Shown: positions 47,919-55,159 of the stretch, one piece after another
Numbering within the stretch: position 1 is the stretch's first letter
Layout of the letters: each line of letters opens with the position of its first letter
Assembly (NCBI GenBank): GCA_026986575.1
Contig: JALSOH010000006.1
Coordinates: forward strand, 352,001-416,000
DNA: 64,000 nt
Reading direction: 5' to 3'
Source of the DNA: Thermoproteota archaeon
GTDB taxonomy: Archaea > Korarchaeota > Korarchaeia > Korarchaeales > Korarchaeaceae
The notes under the pieces: model-generated
The model's database searches: none
What the model was told of the DNA's origin: nothing
What the model saw: only the letters and a program-made list of their open reading frames with translations
Made by a program: the position numbers and the translations under genes

Positions 47919-48503
47919 TCACTTGAACACACTATCTATTAACCTTCTAAGAGTTTTCCTGACTTTAGGTGGATTGTCCACAGAGATGGGCAACCTCTCA
48001 ATGCTCTTCCTCAGAACCTCCTTCAGGTCAAGATCTAGCTCACTGCTCATCGCTTTCACATACTCCCAGTCGATCCTATCCCCGACCTCCGTGAGTATAA
48101 CCGCTATATCAGCGAGGTCCCTCTCCCTGCGAGCTAGTGCCTTGAGTAAGAGCGCATCCTCGGGCGATATGACCCATACCCTCCTCCCGTCAATTTCCGC
48201 CTCTACGGCCCTCTCTAAGAGCTGCCTCACGCTCAATCCAGAGACTCTCTCCACATAAACGTCTATATCCCCTTTCATCCTATGCTTAAATTCGAGCTTT
48301 CCGAGGCGAGGGTTCTCCAACAAAACATAGCCCATACCAGATAATCCCTGCTTAAGCTTCCAGAGATCTGCCGGATCTACAGCGACATCGACATCATGGG
48401 TGGTCCTGAAAGGCCTGATGGCCGATACAGCCAGAGCTCCAAGTAGCGCGTACCTGACCTTTCTCTCCTCCGCTACGGATAAGAAATCTTCAATAGAGGA
48501 CAT
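47919..48503 (-). CDS. Nucleotidyltransferase, AbiEii-like toxin
   Basis: LGALAV...RTTHDVD, LLKA..RERDLAD; overlaps the upstream HTH gene. Confidence 0.75.
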   Translation of the reverse strand: MSSIEDFLSVAEERKVRYALLGALAVSAIRPFRTTHDVDVAVDPADLWKLKQGLSGMGYVLLENPRLGKLEFKHRMKGDIDVYVERVSGLSVRQLLERAVEAEIDGRRVWVISPEDALLLKALARRERDLADIAVILTEVGDRIDWEYVKAMSSELDLDLKEVLRKSIERLPISVDNPPKVRKTLRRLIDSVFK

Positions 48504-49155
48504 CAGTCATCTCCTCCACAACTGTAGGGATCTTCCCACCGAGGGCTGCCAGATCCAGAACGCCTCTCCCCAACCAGGTGATGAGCTCCAACTTCAACCT
48601 CTCCTCCGTCACCACCGGCCAACCAGATATAACCTCGCTAGCTGGTAGCTCTCTCACTGGGATGAGGACGAGATCAGCCAGCCCGTGGGCCCTCCTTCCC
48701 AGAGAGATCCATCTCTCTAAGTCCCGCTCCCTCACATAGGCAAAGGCTGCAGACGGTGTCTGGAACCCTGTTCTTATGTAAGCAGCCGTTTCGTAGCATA
48801 GCACGTAGTCATCTCCCTCACTACTTTCCTTAAGGAGCTCCATTGATCTCTTCCAGCCTCCGGCCTGGAGACGCACGGCCCTATCAAACAGCTTCTCTAT
48901 GTGGAAAACTCCCAGTACATCCTCAGCCTCCATTTTACCAATGATCTTGGCCCTATCAGTCGGGATAAAGACATTCTCCTCTCTTCTGAGCCATCCCCTA
49001 TCTTCAAGTTCTCTCATCTTTCTATAGACAGTAGTCTTTGGTAAAGATGCCTCAATAGCAGCTCTAGAGGGAGTTAGGGGTCCCCTGAGGGCGAGCCATA
49101 TGAGGAAGAGGGAGGACTCATCTATTCCCATATATGGTAAGAGACCCACTTTCAT
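48490..49155 (-). CDS. HTH protein with AbiEi-like C-terminal domain (putative antitoxin)
   Basis: N-terminal wHTH (PKTTVYRKMRELEDRGWL); YETAAY...P...AYV; PVVT.ERL.LEL...GRG. Confidence 0.65.
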   Translation of the reverse strand: MKVGLLPYMGIDESSLFLIWLALRGPLTPSRAAIEASLPKTTVYRKMRELEDRGWLRREENVFIPTDRAKIIGKMEAEDVLGVFHIEKLFDRAVRLQAGGWKRSMELLKESSEGDDYVLCYETAAYIRTGFQTPSAAFAYVRERDLERWISLGRRAHGLADLVLIPVRELPASEVISGWPVVTEERLKLELITWLGRGVLDLAALGGKIPTVVEEMTDVLY

Positions 49156-49442: not shown

Positions 49443-50759
49443 ATGAACTTGCGTTCCCTGTTAGAGCGCTTGACTAATGAGGAAGACGCATCTATACGTG
49501 TGGCCATTAATGAGTCCTCCGATCCTCCCGTGATAAGGAGAAGCTATTCCCAAATTTTCTATGGAAAGGATCTCCCACCTCAACCGCCTGTGGAGGTAAT
49601 TAAAGCGGGGGACCTGCGGGATGCCGACCTGTTCGTTGCGGTCGACTTGGTAATCTCCCTGACGGGAGCTTCCTCCCCCGATGAGGTCAAATCTGGAGCT
49701 GAATCTCTCCTTAGAGAACTAGCTAGGAAGGTAAGGTTGAGGGCGGAGGACTCGAAGAAGAGCAATGTGGCGCTGGCCCTGCCAGAGAGGCGCCACTTGG
49801 AGGAGGTTAAGGGAAAGTGGACCAAGTGGGTGTGGAAGCGAACTGCCTACGACGGGACCCCAGCTCCAGACTTCAATGGCTGGGTCAGGGACTTGATCTC
49901 TTTGGCAGATGCAATAAGGGGGGAGGGAGTGAGGGTCGTCTTCATGGCTGGCGAGTCCGGCAAGGTTCTGGAGGAGATGGGATACGAGGTCGTCAGTGTG
50001 AGCATCGAGGAGACGCTGCCTAAGCTGGGCTACCCTAGGGATCCCAGCGTAGCGTGGTCCGAGCAGCCGATCCTCATGAACATGGCGCTGGACATAAGGG
50101 GGGGCGAAGAAGAGGTCGCTAGATCCTTCTTTCAGAAGAATGGCTTGACTCCGGTGTTCAGGCCTAGGTGGTGGCGTAATGGTGAGATACTCGTCAGAGC
50201 CAAGGCCGAGGGAGGGAACTTCATACTGGTCGAGGGGGAGGGAGGGAAACGAGCCTTGTTCACCGGAATTGGAGTTAGGGGGAGTAACGTGGCCGCTCCC
50301 AAATTACTCCAAGAGTTCCTCATCTCGCAGGGCCTGAATATCGAGGTTTACGGGGTTCCCCTACCCGGCTACATACGGGATTGGCGAACAGGGGCCGTCC
50401 ATCTCGACGTTGTGATGATGCACGCAGGTCCCGTGACTTTCGTGAGCCCGGGCAGGATGGGGTTCTACTCACTTGTTAAGTACGGCGAGTCCCTCGAGAT
50501 AGTAGAGTTGGGTCAAGTGTTCCGTGACTTGGGCATAACAGTGGACGAGATACCTGCTGAGGGCAGCGAGATCACCATGGTGAACGGTCTCAACTTGGGG
50601 AACGGGAAGATAGTGGTGGATTCCTTCAACAGGGACGCGAACAGGTACTTGGAGAGGGAGTGGGGGCTAGACCTCATTGAGGTGAGCATACCCCAGATAG
50701 AGGCCGGCGGCGGAGGTGCGAGGTGCGCTACTAGGGAGTTCTACGTATCACGCGAGTGA
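49443..50759 (+). CDS. Arginine deiminase / amidinotransferase (pentein) family enzyme
   Basis: YPRDP, AEGGN, HLD, NGLNLG, GGGARC catalytic Asp/His/Cys pattern. Confidence 0.85.
   Translation: MNLRSLLERLTNEEDASIRVAINESSDPPVIRRSYSQIFYGKDLPPQPPVEVIKAGDLRDADLFVAVDLVISLTGASSPDEVKSGAESLLRELARKVRLRAEDSKKSNVALALPERRHLEEVKGKWTKWVWKRTAYDGTPAPDFNGWVRDLISLADAIRGEGVRVVFMAGESGKVLEEMGYEVVSVSIEETLPKLGYPRDPSVAWSEQPILMNMALDIRGGEEEVARSFFQKNGLTPVFRPRWWRNGEILVRAKAEGGNFILVEGEGGKRALFTGIGVRGSNVAAPKLLQEFLISQGLNIEVYGVPLPGYIRDWRTGAVHLDVVMMHAGPVTFVSPGRMGFYSLVKYGESLEIVELGQVFRDLGITVDEIPAEGSEITMVNGLNLGNGKIVVDSFNRDANRYLEREWGLDLIEVSIPQIEAGGGGARCATREFYVSRE
50709..50744 (+). repeat. Left direct repeat (attL-like), inside the 3' end of the deiminase gene
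   Basis: GGCGGAGGTGCGAGGTGCGCTACTAGGGAGTTCTAC, identical to 54514-54549. Confidence 0.95.
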
Positions 50760-50886
50760 GCTATCGTAAAACCCCTCAAGGAACTCATTGCTTTTCTAGA
50801 TGGGAAGAATCGGGCTACTTTACCGCTGATTAGATATACTCAATAGTTCAGCCGTTATTCCGACCCATACCGTAGGAAAAGGGGAA

Positions 50887-52257
50887 TTAGAGAGGAACGT
50901 CGCACAGGTATCTCAACATAAACAGAGAGAGCAGCAAGATGCAAGTATCTATCAGCAGGAAGGCAGAGTACAGCGCACCTACATCCACCACGAACCCGTT
51001 CAGTGATTCCAAGAAGACCATGATGAACACGGACTCGGCCACTACCATGATGGGGGTGAGCTTTAACCACCCAATGGACTGGAAGGTCCACATGGATTCT
51101 CTCTTCGGTAGCAGCCTGCATATCAGGAGATTATACAGGGAGGAGAAGGATATCACGGTAAAGATGAATACTGTGAGGTAGTAGACCAAGTTCCCTCCTG
51201 AGATCAGTGAAAATACGACGATAGGGATGTTTATCGCGAGACATATGATCACGTAAAGGGCGTACTTCGACAGGGAGACCTGTAACTTGGTTAAAGGCAG
51301 GATATAGAGGAGGGAAGAGCCAGAGCCCTCCAAGGAGTACAACCAGATTGTGAAGAGAGGGAGTATCACACCCAGCTCCAAGAGGGAAGCCAAGGTCAGG
51401 TTGAGCAACGCCGCGTTTGAACTTACTTCAGAAGTGTAGATCGTGATGATAGAGTGTGGAAATACGGAAAATAGTATTAAAGCCAGTATCCAAGGTCTCC
51501 TCCTGATCAAGATCAACTCCTTCTTTAGGAGAGTCATGTGAGGCAATTCTGCGTACTCATTCCCGGCAGGAGCGACATTAGGAAACTCATGCAATCTCCC
51601 TATTACTCTACCGAAGGCCATTGCAGTTAAGTAGAAATATCCTATCAGAAGTATACTTCTCTCTAAGATAGACGAGCTAAAGAGAATCGTAAGAAGAGGA
51701 CCTAAATACGTAAAAAGAATAATAGAACCTACCCAACTTAAGGTGATTAACCACGGAACTCTCCTAAATGAAATTTCCACGCAGGCCATTCCCAGTATAG
51801 TACCTAATACAGCTAGAAAACTACTAAGCCATACTAGGATGAAGATAGCATTAAACCGGAAGTCGAGGAGAGTATAGTAGGGGGGGATTAAGAGCGGGGA
51901 GAGGGCAAGACCACCCCAAAGTAAATGCGCAATAATTACTGCTGCAATGACAGTTCTAGGCCTAATAGGCAACATCAGTATTGGCATCAGAGACTTAGTG
52001 TCCTTGATAGATCTGTAATTGATAATAGACAGTGTAAAGAACGAAAATATATAAACCAGTTGACTAACTTTAATGTAAGATTGAATACTATCTCCATCTC
52101 TAACCAATATTATGAGGAAGAAGGACATTATGATAGAGGCTATAAATAGCAAAATATTAGACAATAGAATCCTAACTAAACTAATAGAATTACCACTTCT
52201 ATAGCTTCCTTCGCGGATTATTATCAAAGCTATCCGGAGAGGCAGAGGAATTCTCAA
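50887..52257 (-). CDS. ABC-2-type exporter permease (multi-TM)
   Basis: About 12 TM helices; LLKKEL..IRRRP and EG...LLYILPLT motifs; aligns by eye with the permease at 62849. Confidence 0.75.
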   Translation of the reverse strand: MRIPLPLRIALIIIREGSYRSGNSISLVRILLSNILLFIASIIMSFFLIILVRDGDSIQSYIKVSQLVYIFSFFTLSIINYRSIKDTKSLMPILMLPIRPRTVIAAVIIAHLLWGGLALSPLLIPPYYTLLDFRFNAIFILVWLSSFLAVLGTILGMACVEISFRRVPWLITLSWVGSIILFTYLGPLLTILFSSSILERSILLIGYFYLTAMAFGRVIGRLHEFPNVAPAGNEYAELPHMTLLKKELILIRRRPWILALILFSVFPHSIITIYTSEVSSNAALLNLTLASLLELGVILPLFTIWLYSLEGSGSSLLYILPLTKLQVSLSKYALYVIICLAINIPIVVFSLISGGNLVYYLTVFIFTVISFSSLYNLLICRLLPKRESMWTFQSIGWLKLTPIMVVAESVFIMVFLESLNGFVVDVGALYSAFLLIDTCILLLSLFMLRYLCDVPL

Positions 52258-52359
52258 GGTTCCATACCCTAAAGATTTACTCGTCTACTTAAAAATTAAT
52301 GGACATTAGTATGACTTGCATTCATCATATCATGGCTGAATAATTTATTAGTTAAAAAG

Positions 52360-52986
52360 TTAATCCAATGTGAAAATAACAACGTTATATATATGGATAT
52401 ATAGCAAAATAGCTAAGGAAAAGATAGCTGAAGATGCACACCTTATATCGAATTTTCCGGATAATTTATATAAGGAACATAGCCAGAAAAAGAAAATTAT
52501 CAAGTCTATTGCTATAAACAGATAAGGGCTAATGATAAGATCAAATTCGGACCTCAATAATATAAAAAAAGAAGGTATTACAAATTCAATTAGTCTAAGT
52601 AGAAAGACCGAACTCTCTCCTATCTGAAGAAATATCAAATAAAATCCGAAGCTTAGGAGCGTGTCTCTTAATTTTATTGTATGTTCCTTACAGAAAGTCG
52701 TAATGGTTAAGTAAAATATCTCAGTAACAAGGAATAGGACGAATAAACTAGCTAACCCATGTGCAAGAAAACCTGCCGCGATCACTAAGAATAATCCTCC
52801 AAGAAAATTCTGAAGAAGCACCGTAAATTCTCTGAGGAGATACATTGTCAAACTTGTAGTATACAATAGAGATGAGATCAGTATAGTTGATAGTAGAATG
52901 ATAACCTTTCGATGAGGGCTAACATTATCTAGAAAAAGACAGAAACCCCAAACTCTATTCAATATCCTGATTACAAGGAATTTCAC
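52360..52986 (-). CDS. Yip1-like membrane protein
   Basis: 208 aa, 5-6 hydrophobic helices; divergent from the peptide gene; family call rests on topology and context. Confidence 0.5.
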   Translation of the reverse strand: MKFLVIRILNRVWGFCLFLDNVSPHRKVIILLSTILISSLLYTTSLTMYLLREFTVLLQNFLGGLFLVIAAGFLAHGLASLFVLFLVTEIFYLTITTFCKEHTIKLRDTLLSFGFYLIFLQIGESSVFLLRLIEFVIPSFFILLRSEFDLIISPYLFIAIDLIIFFFWLCSLYKLSGKFDIRCASSAIFSLAILLYIHIYNVVIFTLD

Positions 52987-53049
52987 AAGAATGCCTCCTT
53001 TAGACTCATAATACCATGTTCTCTGACCGGTGCGTTGATCTTAAGTAAA

Positions 53050-53060
53050 TTTTTATATAT
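53050..53060. promoter_or_regulatory. TATA box of the divergent island promoter
   Basis: TTTTTATATAT about 30 nt upstream of the peptide GTG, between divergent genes. Confidence 0.55.
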
Positions 53061-53090
53061 TTGCGCCCTAATTATAAATGTGGTGGTTCC

Positions 53091-53345
53091 GTGGATCAGA
53101 GGAAAATAGTTTCAGTAATCCTGATGTTGCAAATCATATTTCTTGCGGCGCCCTTTTGGATGAGCGGAAAAGCAGGAATGATATGGGGAGCTATAGCATA
53201 TCACGTCCATACACATTATCATAACCATCTAGCTTCGCACGTAGCTTTACATATGGCTATCACTCATATCATGATATACACCTTAGCAGGGTCTGGGTTT
53301 GGACCCATCGGAGCGTTAGCTGGCTTTCTAATAGGAATAGCATAA
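53091..53345 (+). CDS. Putative bacteriocin/archaeocin precursor peptide (84 aa, His-rich)
   Basis: GGTGG RBS plus GTG; leader-like MDQRK+hydrophobic stretch; core with 8 His and a Gly-rich hydrophobic end GSGFGPIGALAGFLIGIA; upstream of SpoIIM. Confidence 0.7.
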   Translation: MDQRKIVSVILMLQIIFLAAPFWMSGKAGMIWGAIAYHVHTHYHNHLASHVALHMAITHIMIYTLAGSGFGPIGALAGFLIGIA

Positions 53346-53385
53346 ACCTAATTCTCTAACATTTTTATATCTTAGGTGAGGAGAC

Positions 53386-53796
53386 ATGTTATCCAAAAAG
53401 CGAAATCTTGTTGGTATTATGATATTTTTCATACTCATGACAATTTTCTTCGGAGTCTTTTCATATCAGTTGTGGATCTCTGAACCGGAGGATTTCCTCT
53501 TATATTTCGCTGTAGGATTTACCTCTAGCATTCTTATATTCCTACTTTTCTCTGGAGATGTTGATCCTTTGGATATGTCTTGGAGGGGAATAGATGTAAA
53601 AGATAGGAGAACTCTCCTAAAGTATCTAATCTTAATAGGCCTAGTAGGTGCACTGCTAGGATCAGCACTCCCTCATGCTCTTGGATATCAGAATGAATTT
53701 CTGTATATAGCAGCTTGGTATACAGTAGGGCTGGGTGTAGCAGTTGCTTCGCTCTTGATATTGCCCATACTCAGCTATTTTCATAACAGAAAATAA
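53386..53796 (+). CDS. Small 4-TM membrane protein, candidate immunity protein
   Basis: GGTGAGGAG RBS; four hydrophobic helices, basic termini; directly after the peptide gene. Confidence 0.6.
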   Translation: MLSKKRNLVGIMIFFILMTIFFGVFSYQLWISEPEDFLLYFAVGFTSSILIFLLFSGDVDPLDMSWRGIDVKDRRTLLKYLILIGLVGALLGSALPHALGYQNEFLYIAAWYTVGLGVAVASLLILPILSYFHNRK

Positions 53797-53811
53797 AGTA
53801 GAAACACGGAG

Positions 53812-54435
53812 GTGGATGTTATAAATATCGGTGAAAAAGGTATTTGGATAGCAGCTCTTCTCCTGTATTTTGTGGGGTTCGGCTTGTCTCTTCTGGACAA
53901 CTCCACCCTGCAACATCCTACTACTCTCCGATGGAAATACATTGACTTAAAACTAAATCGCGAATATTATTTTATAATTACCTATGATTTTTTTAAAATT
54001 TGTCGAATGGATGACTACTCAAAAATTAAACTCATTTTGATAAACAATTTAGAGAGTGTTGTATTGACTGTGATGGGAGGAGTTGCTCTCTCGATACCGA
54101 CCGTCGTATCTACACTGTACAATGGATATCTTTTTGGCTCTTTTATCGGAGGTGCGCTTGCGAGTGGGCTAAGTTTAATCGAAATAATAAAACTAACTGT
54201 GTTTCATGGATTTATAGAGATAGCAGGATTCTTGATGGCGACTGTTGCAGGAATGCGTATCTCACTTTTATTAAAAGATTTATTGATATCATTACCTGAA
54301 GATCAAGATTTCTCTAAGAAGATGCGATTAAAAATTATAAGTATTATGAAACTCTTCCTATACTCTCTAATTTTTATTACTATAGCGGGATTGATAGAGG
54401 TGTACATCTCAATAGACCTAATCCTCTGCGGATAA
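53812..54435 (+). CDS. SpoIIM/DUF95-family membrane protein
   Basis: NN....L, NG...G, HGFIE, G..I and IAGLIEVYIS signature motifs. Confidence 0.85.
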   Translation: MDVINIGEKGIWIAALLLYFVGFGLSLLDNSTLQHPTTLRWKYIDLKLNREYYFIITYDFFKICRMDDYSKIKLILINNLESVVLTVMGGVALSIPTVVSTLYNGYLFGSFIGGALASGLSLIEIIKLTVFHGFIEIAGFLMATVAGMRISLLLKDLLISLPEDQDFSKKMRLKIISIMKLFLYSLIFITIAGLIEVYISIDLILCG

Positions 54436-54513
54436 CTCACCTATATTAATTTTAGGCAAATAATCAGGAGTTTCACTTACCTGCTATTTTGAAACAGCCA
54501 AATTGAGGCTGGA

Positions 54514-54549
54514 GGCGGAGGTGCGAGGTGCGCTACTAGGGAGTTCTAC
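54514..54549 (+). repeat. Right direct repeat (attR-like); orphan copy of the deiminase 3' end
   Basis: Identical to 50709-50744; 54499-54555 reads QIEAGGGGARCATREFYK-stop. Confidence 0.95.
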
Positions 54550-54601
54550 AAATGAAAATTCGTTAAACTTATATTATCACGGGGTTATATCGGCCGGTGG
54601 G

Positions 54602-55159
54602 ATGTTGGTCAGGCCCATGACCTTGTACGCCTTGGCCTCTTCCTTCGGAGGAGAGTCCATGGCCCACATGCGCTACATCCTCTTCGCCGAGAAGGCGGAG
54701 AGGGAAGGCTTTCCCAACGTCGCCAGATTGTTCAGGGCGATCGCCTATGCTGAGAGGGTCCACGCGAACAACCACTTCAACGCACTCTCCGAACTCAAGG
54801 GAGACCTGAAGGTGGTGGCCGGAGCGACCTTCGGCCCCGGGAGCACCTCCAAGAACTTGGAGCTTGCAATTATGGGGGAGGAATACGAGGTAGAGGAAAT
54901 GTATCCTGCATACATATCGGTGGCCGAGCTTCAGGGGGAGAGGAGAGCTGCTACAAGCTTCAAATGGGCCTTGGAGGCTGAGAAAATACATGCTGAGCTG
55001 TTCAGAGAGGCGAAGGATTATGTGGACAGGGGAGAGGATTACCCATTGGATGGGAAGATCTGGATATGTCCCGTATGCGGGCATACTCACGTGGGCCCGG
55101 AACCTCCGGAGAGATGCCCGGTCTGCGGGGCGCCTAGGGATAGGTACGAGGGTTTCTGA
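54602..55159 (+). CDS. rbr: Rubrerythrin
   Basis: GESMA..RY..FA, AERVHA, GEEYE...MYP, AEKIH, CPVCG...CPVCG rubredoxin domain; ATG at 54602. Confidence 0.93.
   Translation: MLVRPMTLYALASSFGGESMAHMRYILFAEKAEREGFPNVARLFRAIAYAERVHANNHFNALSELKGDLKVVAGATFGPGSTSKNLELAIMGEEYEVEEMYPAYISVAELQGERRAATSFKWALEAEKIHAELFREAKDYVDRGEDYPLDGKIWICPVCGHTHVGPEPPERCPVCGAPRDRYEGF

Follow-up and report, generated by a model that had tools for sequence, protein, structure and literature searches.

How can a protein-coding gene come to have two copies of its 3' end, 3.8 kb apart, and still encode a whole enzyme? The question is raised by a 64,000-nt stretch of DNA from a Thermoproteota archaeon of the family Korarchaeaceae (GenBank assembly GCA_026986575.1, contig JALSOH010000006.1, positions 352,001 to 416,000; hereafter the window), where an island of genes for hydrophobic proteins separates a deiminase-fold gene from a rubrerythrin gene. 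The genome under study (G000) comprises 1,911,475 bp in 11 contigs, with the window at G000:C6:352001-416000; coordinates given without a contig are those of the window. Here we report that the locus is an insertion, and we argue, with confidence a little better than even, that the island represents a mobile element in integrated form, whole or reduced to a stump, bounded by attachment (att) sites and devoid of its own integrase, which would have entered through a tyrosine-type integrase that was since lost or acted in trans.

The island is bordered by a direct repeat, the sole family returned by a repeat search of the window. Its copies at 50693-50744 and 54498-54549 span 52 nt, agree at 48 of the 52 positions (92%) and are spaced 3805 nt apart, and their last 36 nt (50709-50744 and 54514-54549) match perfectly. 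Allowing up to three mismatches, the window contains this 36-mer exactly two times, where 100 shuffles gave an expectation of 0.00, and a 201-nt query spanning it matched these two sites only in the whole genome. In the reading frame of the deiminase the four differences are CAG/CAA, ATA/ATT, GCC/GCT and GGC/GGA, every one a synonymous third-position change. By hand calculation, the probability that all four, spread over 15 positions, fall on the five third positions is 5/1365 = 0.004. The left copy continues to ...EFYVSRE-stop and the right copy to ...EFYK-stop. A sequence-only reading of the window had already described a perfect 36-bp repeat over a deiminase motif, a 5' extension with four synonymous mismatches and two different gene ends, and all three recurred here at identical coordinates and codons. 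Homology beyond the 52 nt does not exceed chance, the downstream score being reached in 271 of 5000 shuffles and the upstream score in 3424 of 5000. The inserted unit measures 3,805 bp, i.e. 3,769 unique bases plus one core. The 3,769 bp are unique in their own genome (blastn finds self only), and the repeat search detected no terminal inverted repeats joining the island ends.

The relatives of this archaeon show what the site looks like when it is empty. A six-frame search of 40 relatives found the deiminase gene in 19. In five of them (G011, G009, G020, G010 and G005) the deiminase stop is followed by about 58 bp and the rubrerythrin start, with nothing between. These five are all of the close same-genus relatives whose contig extends past the deiminase (5/5); the contig of G007 stops 38 bp after the gene. 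One metagenome contig also has an empty site, with layout and coordinates as in G011, and is probably not independent of it. The sequence 3' of the right repeat copy aligns base for base with the intergenic region of the relatives, and the empty-site deiminases end in EFYV, EFYI or EFYK, the last being that of G005. Because the junctions align with the empty-site relatives in this way, the right copy can be identified as the native gene end (EFYK-stop), and the left copy as carrying a foreign VSRE-stop. This agrees with the previous proposal that the native gene ended in EFYK beside the rubrerythrin gene (rbr). The locus is thus an insertion.

The gene that received the insertion encodes a protein with an arginine deiminase (Pfam ADI) match confined to its C-terminus (residues 380-430, E=1.4e-9), and its orthologues in the five relatives are 85-91% identical. 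In sequence searches of the PDB, the deiminase and its family profile each had 0 hits. We built an AlphaFold model on 12 family members (predicted local distance difference test, pLDDT, 71.5; predicted template modelling score, pTM, 0.79), and a fold search matched it to the arginine deiminases 1rxx, 4bof and 2aci (E ~1e-7, template modelling score 0.38-0.52), with further resemblance to agmatine deiminases and DDAH. The predicted structure places the protein in the guanidino-group-modifying enzyme superfamily, which has the arginine deiminase/agmatine deiminase/DDAH fold. Residue C428, ten residues from the C-terminus of the 438, is invariant in 12/12 aligned family members and its codon lies inside the 36-nt core. 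The titles of the matched structure entries name the catalytic mutants C406A, C249S and C357A, likewise close to the C-termini. There is good ground, on the model and the alignment, to regard C428 as the nucleophilic, catalytic cysteine.

The inserted DNA differs from its surroundings, in part, in composition and in the kind of protein it encodes. In 150-nt windows, its content of guanine plus cytosine (GC) is 0.27-0.47 to the right of ~51550 and 0.43-0.53 to the left of it, compared with ~0.55 in the flanks, with lows of 0.27-0.43, and the GC content of third codon positions (GC3) is 0.32-0.38 in the cargo genes other than the first versus 0.69-0.72 in the flanking genes. The leftmost ~750 bp are host-like. 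The transition falls within the first cargo gene, m456, whose GC3 rises from 0.36-0.42 over codons 1-200 to 0.70-0.74, the host level, over codons 301-450. As GC3 shifts from foreign to host-like in the middle of a gene, the island is a mosaic, and m456 itself has the look of a chimera formed by recombination between one AT-rich and one GC-rich homologue.

A crude hydropathy scan showed that the five cargo products are strongly hydrophobic and that the flanking enzymes are not. HMMER searches matched m456 to distant relatives of ~500 aa (27-29% identity) and to two further short fragments, P0005 and P0012. The only closer homologue recovered is P0003, a 192-aa fragment with 65% identity that starts at residue 253 and spans exactly the host-like half of m456. 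A paralogue elsewhere in the same genome follows a gene for an ATP-binding cassette (ABC) ATPase, so our best guess for m456 is a putative transporter permease. The second product, m208, has no match in Pfam, PHROG, NCBIfam or PADLOC; an ESM Atlas feature score of 0.94 to clusters named 'putative Yip1 domain' makes a Yip1-like resemblance a lead only. For p94 the sole match is weak (phrog_15014, E=0.005). A stretch between its two hydrophobic segments holds seven His in 24 residues and has no homologue, and p94 may possibly be a metal-binding membrane peptide. PHROGs, NCBIfam and PADLOC searches added nothing for the cargo open reading frames (ORFs), and the island contains no transfer RNA (tRNA) gene and no Rfam family. 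In a word-based search of 5.8 billion proteins, m456, m208 and the SpoIIM-like protein matched their own cluster only. No island-related locus was present in the metagenome, genome or viral contigs searched, nothing nearer to the cargo than 38% identity was found in 43 genomes of the phylum, and no SpoIIM-like match in five chosen genomes. Compared by blastn with all retrieved loci, the island gave 23-nt chance matches only.

A second lineage carries the same junction. The protein P0023, from the 90% cluster of the deiminase, ends in EFYVSQE, and VSQE is an element-type tail. P0013, from the m456 cluster, is 90% identical to m456 (381/421). Both are labelled NCBI and each lies on a contig of 118,141 bp. 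P0023 is 95.5% identical to the deiminase of the empty-site relative G011 and 91.0% identical to that of G000, which in the deiminase gene tree groups with the empty-site pair G009/G020 (87/87). The best tree uniting the two island carriers is worse by 13.9 log-likelihood units (p = 0.040 in the approximately unbiased test). Since a carrier with the VSQE tail has its closest deiminase in an empty-site species, the sequences imply at least two events at this site: either two entries, or one entry followed by clean losses. The two halves of m456 are about equally diverged between the carriers (90.6% and 91.7%), and the mosaic is therefore older than their split. For m208 and the SpoIIM-like protein no second homologue is on record; the second carrier may therefore bear different cargo on that side.

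The copy of the gene end that the element brought with it is itself composite. Positions 54499-54523 of the element-derived arm agree 25/25 with the allele of G008, a species of the genus with lower GC (~45% at its deiminase locus), and of 17 distinct alleles of the relatives that of G008 alone has the same base at all four variant sites. In the 26 nt that follow, both copies in the window carry the G000 allele, from which G008 departs at 7 positions. Across the 36-nt core as a whole, the relatives differ from G000 at 3-10 positions. The gene-end copy of the element is thus a patchwork. The match to G008 and the restriction of the mismatches to synonymous sites uphold the earlier suggestion that the incoming DNA bore a piece of a relative's deiminase gene.

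The arrangement can be understood as follows. A circular DNA carrying a copy of the deiminase 3' end (attP) would have recombined conservatively with the chromosomal gene (attB), with the exchange placed inside the shared 36 nt. The left product (attL) would then consist of the host gene body, the core and the element-supplied VSRE-stop, and the right product (attR) of the element arm, the core, the displaced K-stop and the untouched region upstream of rubrerythrin. With attL laid out in this way the deiminase stays whole, its invariant C-terminal cysteine included. The recombinase may have been lost, or another element may have provided it in trans, as happens with cis-mobilisable elements of bacteria. 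Homologous recombination between two related tandem elements would be one way to lose it, and would explain the mosaic m456 as well. Integrase loss as a means of fixing an element, and the exchange of modules between elements, are both described in the available text of PMC8371274. At 52 nt, the repeat falls in the length range of 29-69 bp given for the att sites of crenarchaea (PMC6563490, as far as its available text goes).

Several results weigh against entry by a tyrosine-type integrase. Searches of Pfam, PHROGs, NCBIfam and PADLOC assigned no ORF of at least 40 aa in 50745-54513 to a recombinase family, in keeping with the sequence-only reading, which had noted no recombinase between the repeats; nor was an integrase remnant found in the island, whose non-coding gaps are only ~60-130 bp. 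Genome-wide, the tyrosine recombinase family PF00589 matches at C6:255703 and C4:266049 only, and the one intact tyrosine recombinase is a 258-aa Xer-like protein conserved across the genus. An integrase pseudogene at C4:266052-266806 (L057) matches residues 136-386 of the 392-aa integrase of G008 in two frames; it is frameshifted, has lost ~135 N-terminal residues and is 42% identical. The genome has one serine recombinase, on a different contig from the island. No tyrosine recombinase lies near the deiminase in 21 genomes of the genus, and among the 15 other genus genomes with a full-length deiminase PF00589 occurs on the deiminase contig only in G015 and G017, at least ~100 kb off. A free attP, a circle junction or an integrase-bearing relative of the element was not found in the collections searched, in which many contigs are short: the viral contigs held no exact match to the core, and a codon-degenerate core pattern matched the metagenome contigs once, at an empty site laid out as in G011. 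The 52-nt repeat has no dyad symmetry (0 candidates with arms of at least 6 nt, at most one mismatch and a spacer of 4-9 nt, versus a mean of 0.9 in 500 shuffles). A patchwork gene end would not be predicted by site-specific exchange at a fixed position. Finally, the tree comparison of the two carriers concerns the target gene only, the tested group having been named after the tree had been seen, and the placement of P0013 and P0023 on one contig is inferred from equal contig size alone.

Many of these points bear on a second, possible though clearly less probable account, in which the DNA enters and leaves by homology and needs no dedicated integrase. About 50 nt of a relative's deiminase end would have recombined by means of the host's homologous recombination, circular or broken DNA being taken up by ends-in integration with gap repair and released by excision between the direct repeats, so that each host would partly rewrite the copy. 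The island without an integrase, the genome whose only intact one is Xer-like and the repeat lacking dyad symmetry are all as this account would have them. The arm differs from the host only synonymously and is identical to the functional allele of another species, which suggests capture from a working gene fairly recently, and gap repair from the chromosome would yield two cores that carry the host allele over 36 nt. In the available text of PMC8371274, moreover, an archaeal integrase can give outcomes resembling homologous recombination, and homologous recombination incorporates foreign DNA. However, 36 nt of identity, or 52 nt at 92%, is a very short substrate; for the pTN3 integrase a figure of 104 bp is given (PMC8371274, same text). 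The same junction in two non-sister lineages fits a site-specific system more easily. The match to G008 involves four sites, which an AT bias could make converge.

A broader version, which we regard as doubtful, is that minimal gene packets without a recombinase travel between archaeal lineages on a ~50-nt copy of a host gene end that is partly rewritten in each host. Their entry and exit would be guided by homology or by any integrase at hand, and not by an enzyme of the element's own. This would explain an arm with another species' allele beside a core with the allele of the present host, and it would suit a target-gene tree on which the two carriers are not sisters.

It is rather improbable that the island is a single old insertion, now an inert relic, which was inherited vertically and cleanly deleted between the repeats in several relatives. 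The island copies are diverged (m456 90%) about as much as the host deiminases (91%), no sign of excision appears in k=31 contig data (in which contigs break at the 36-mer), and 0/83 of the genome's own spacers from clustered regularly interspaced short palindromic repeats (CRISPR) match the island, all of which would suit a relic. Yet the deiminase tree demands precise loss in at least G011 and the G009/G020 group, and since every such loss is itself a recombination between the repeats, this would leave the site still active. With its low GC3, the AT-rich portion of the island has moreover not been ameliorated.

We consider it very unlikely that the locus is an artefact of assembly, in which a free 3.8-kb circle sharing 36 nt with the chromosome was misthreaded into the contig. 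The run data consist of k=31 contigs, which break at the 36-mer, such that the integrated form and a circle plus empty site look alike in them. In both runs that hold the island it forms a piece of its own, 3,829 nt long; the contigs never cross the repeat and show neither a joint, nor a circle, nor an empty site. The 3,829-nt contig recorded for the SpoIIM-like protein is this piece between the repeats (3,769 + 2 x 30 nt). On the other hand, depths of 15.4 / 29.8 / 18 / 16.4 in run X1 and 21.4 / 38.8 / 18.4-21.8 / 20.2 in run X2 fit one island copy per chromosome and two core copies, with island depth equal to flank depth in both; X3 yielded low-depth scraps of the island and X4 nothing of it. 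Assemblies with contigs of 504,152 and 1,300,470 bp, whose source samples may be shared and which are not fully independent, also contain a junction-spanning deiminase that ends in the VSRE tail. A diverged genome carries the VSQE tail, and the four arm mismatches make either junction unique for words longer than ~40 nt. Least credible of all is that the element borrows the chromosomal Xer recombinase, as bacterial elements integrating at dif do: the 258-aa protein is the sole intact tyrosine recombinase and is conserved in the genus, but the site lies within coding sequence and its 52 nt contain no dyad like that of dif, in which a 6-nt spacer separates two inverted arms of 11 nt (available text of PMC8371274).

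Other classes of element were considered and rejected. A casposon or transposon is not indicated, as there are no terminal inverted repeats, the duplication is 36-52 nt of gene sequence, and Cas1 matches in the genome occur only at C6:437845, beside a CRISPR array, and at C4:880243-880935. A partitioned integrase of the SSV type was likewise dismissed, because the ORFs at the repeat are the deiminase and a spurious rubrerythrin extension, with no integrase-like ORF at either end. The extra ~390-aa integrases of G011, G003 and G008 are set among ordinary genes, away from the deiminase. The features of the locus are collected in Table 1.

Table 1. Coordinates of the insertion, its borders, its cargo and the two flanking genes in the window
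Feature	Coordinates	Strand	Details
Predicted deiminase-fold gene, 438 aa, guanidino-group-modifying enzyme superfamily	49443..50759	+	last four codons and stop element-derived
Left repeat copy (attL)	50693..50744	+	host arm 50693-50708; 36-nt core 50709-50744, including C428 codon TGC 50724-50726
Element-supplied gene end	50745..50759	+	GTA TCA CGC GAG TGA (VSRE-stop); not in the five empty-site relatives
Inserted DNA	50745..54513	.	3,769 bp
Cargo gene 1, m456, 456-aa multi-pass membrane protein, distant 12TM_1 member	50887..52257	-	Pfam E=0.0026, below family cut-off
Cargo gene 2, m208, 208-aa multi-pass membrane protein, without family assignment	52360..52986	-	hydropathy scan
Cargo ORF 3, p94, 94 aa, candidate gene	53061..53345	+	two hydrophobic segments, histidine-rich stretch
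Cargo gene 4, p136, 136 aa, without family assignment	53386..53796	+	four hydrophobic segments
Cargo gene 5, 207-aa SpoIIM-family membrane protein	53812..54435	+	PF01944 E=1.1e-17, 64.9 bits versus cut-off 26.9
Right repeat copy (attR)	54498..54549	+	element-derived arm 54498-54513 with four synonymous differences; 36-nt core 54514-54549
Displaced native gene end and native intergenic region upstream of rubrerythrin	54550..54610	+	AAA TGA at 54550-54555; aligns with the five empty-site relatives
Rubrerythrin gene, native right-hand neighbour	54611..55159	+	Pfam Rubrerythrin E=6.7e-30, RUBY_RBDX E=3e-13

Some further observations concern the neighbourhood of the deiminase. Rubrerythrin directly follows the deiminase in the relatives. 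In G020 the rubrerythrin gene (L008, G020:C62) was matched in two overlapping pieces with a one-base gap just past the start codon, which may be either a frameshift or a sequencing error. Upstream of the deiminase, on the minus strand at 47919-49155, two genes form a pair: one encodes a 194-aa nucleotidyltransferase of the DUF6036/NTP_transf_5 type, the other a winged-helix regulator of 221 aa that is upstream of the deiminase in G009 and G020 too. A 3' fragment of the deiminase gene in G008 was tried as a second att site and rejected, as it is a frameshifted gene remnant at the ancestral place beside a carboxypeptidase gene. This remnant (L037, G008:C93, 317-612, and L039, G008:C46, 3106-3213; residues 335-433) is flanked by a potABC-like transporter operon on one side and by the carboxypeptidase gene on the other, and has 68% DNA identity to the intact deiminase of the same genome, which sits on another contig. 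The ancestral deiminase locus of G008 has decayed, and the full copy sits elsewhere.

Traces of other mobile DNA are found mainly on contig C4. The stretch with the integrase pseudogene has 43-47% GC, includes a gene whose N-terminus is ParB-like by eye, and is probably a decayed element; a homologous tyrosine integrase of ~392 aa is intact in G008, G003 and G011. A 24-nt repeat at C4:515113/519872 around a lower-GC block turned out to be a pair of related, PIN-domain-like sequences. It is the exact part of a diverged direct repeat of ~100 nt (C4:515073-515217 / 519832-519976) around a 4.8-kb block of GC 0.446, versus 0.533 in the flanks. The right copy of this repeat lies inside a 110-aa ORF that is PIN-domain-like by eye, and the left copy is a fragment of similar sequence. 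Exact direct repeats of 24-31 nt, 15-44 kb apart, at G000:C4 95110/132397, 95269/138880, 162887/177706 and 222551/259423 resemble tRNA 3' ends and may possibly be att sites of larger integrated elements. Distant SpoIIM-like paralogues map to ~149.9 kb and ~164.5 kb of C4, within or next to DNA of low GC at ~C4:149-167 kb. The genome has two CRISPR arrays with differing repeats, at C6:439745-441718 (~25 repeats) and C7:23-3990 (~61 repeats), and their 83 spacers have no match at E <=1e-4 elsewhere in the genome outside the arrays.

How does the island compare with systems already described? Cis-mobilisable elements (CIMEs) of Firmicutes have attL and attR and no recombination or transfer genes; they presumably arise by tandem accretion and deletion, and are presumably moved by the integrase of a helper. 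The island resembles them in structure, with attL and attR present and recombination and transfer genes absent. It differs in its host domain, and the 21 genus genomes, in which many contigs are short, revealed no helper that shares the att site. With archaeal elements that move by tyrosine integrases it shares flanking repeats, an empty site in relatives and foreign composition, and it lacks their integrase.

Integration at the distal 3' end of a protein gene, with the frame rebuilt by the element, accounts for 14 of 68 thaumarchaeal elements in the available text of PMC6563490, from which the following comparisons are drawn. The type represented by NitEve-E2 of Nitrososphaera evergladensis is alike in its flanking direct repeats, an empty site in a close relative and cryptic cargo, and also in that element sequence takes the place of the final codons and stop of the target and restores the frame. 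Unlike the island, whose host is Korarchaeota-like, the thaumarchaeal elements are defined by their integrase. The repeat is 36/52 nt in the island versus 13 nt in NitEve-E2, and the island stands at the small end of the quoted range of 2.6-98 kb. In bacteria, the e14 prophage at icd of Escherichia coli K-12 offers a similar picture (PMC13626634, available text): the target gene runs into the element, a displaced fragment (icdC) lies at the far end, and the two gene-end copies differ mainly synonymously. In contrast to the island, e14 is a prophage of 15 kb in a bacterium, is excised by an SOS-induced system of its own and has a much longer duplicated stretch. The architecture of the island is thus ordinary, and as integration at archaeal gene 3' ends has already been described, its novelty is modest. 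The features worth following are the patchwork att site and the second, non-sister carrier.

The available text of PMC13573593 reports no provirus in 124 genomes of Korarchaeota, and among the titles and abstracts found by a literature search on such elements none describes integrated elements in this group, in which integrated mobile DNA is almost undescribed. The island adds an example with exact borders, for which five empty sites serve as controls and a second lineage is occupied, and it marks the 3' end of the deiminase gene as a recombination site. With its mosaic arm and no integrase, it provides a test case for whether borrowed integrases, or nothing more than short homology, move small gene packets in archaea.

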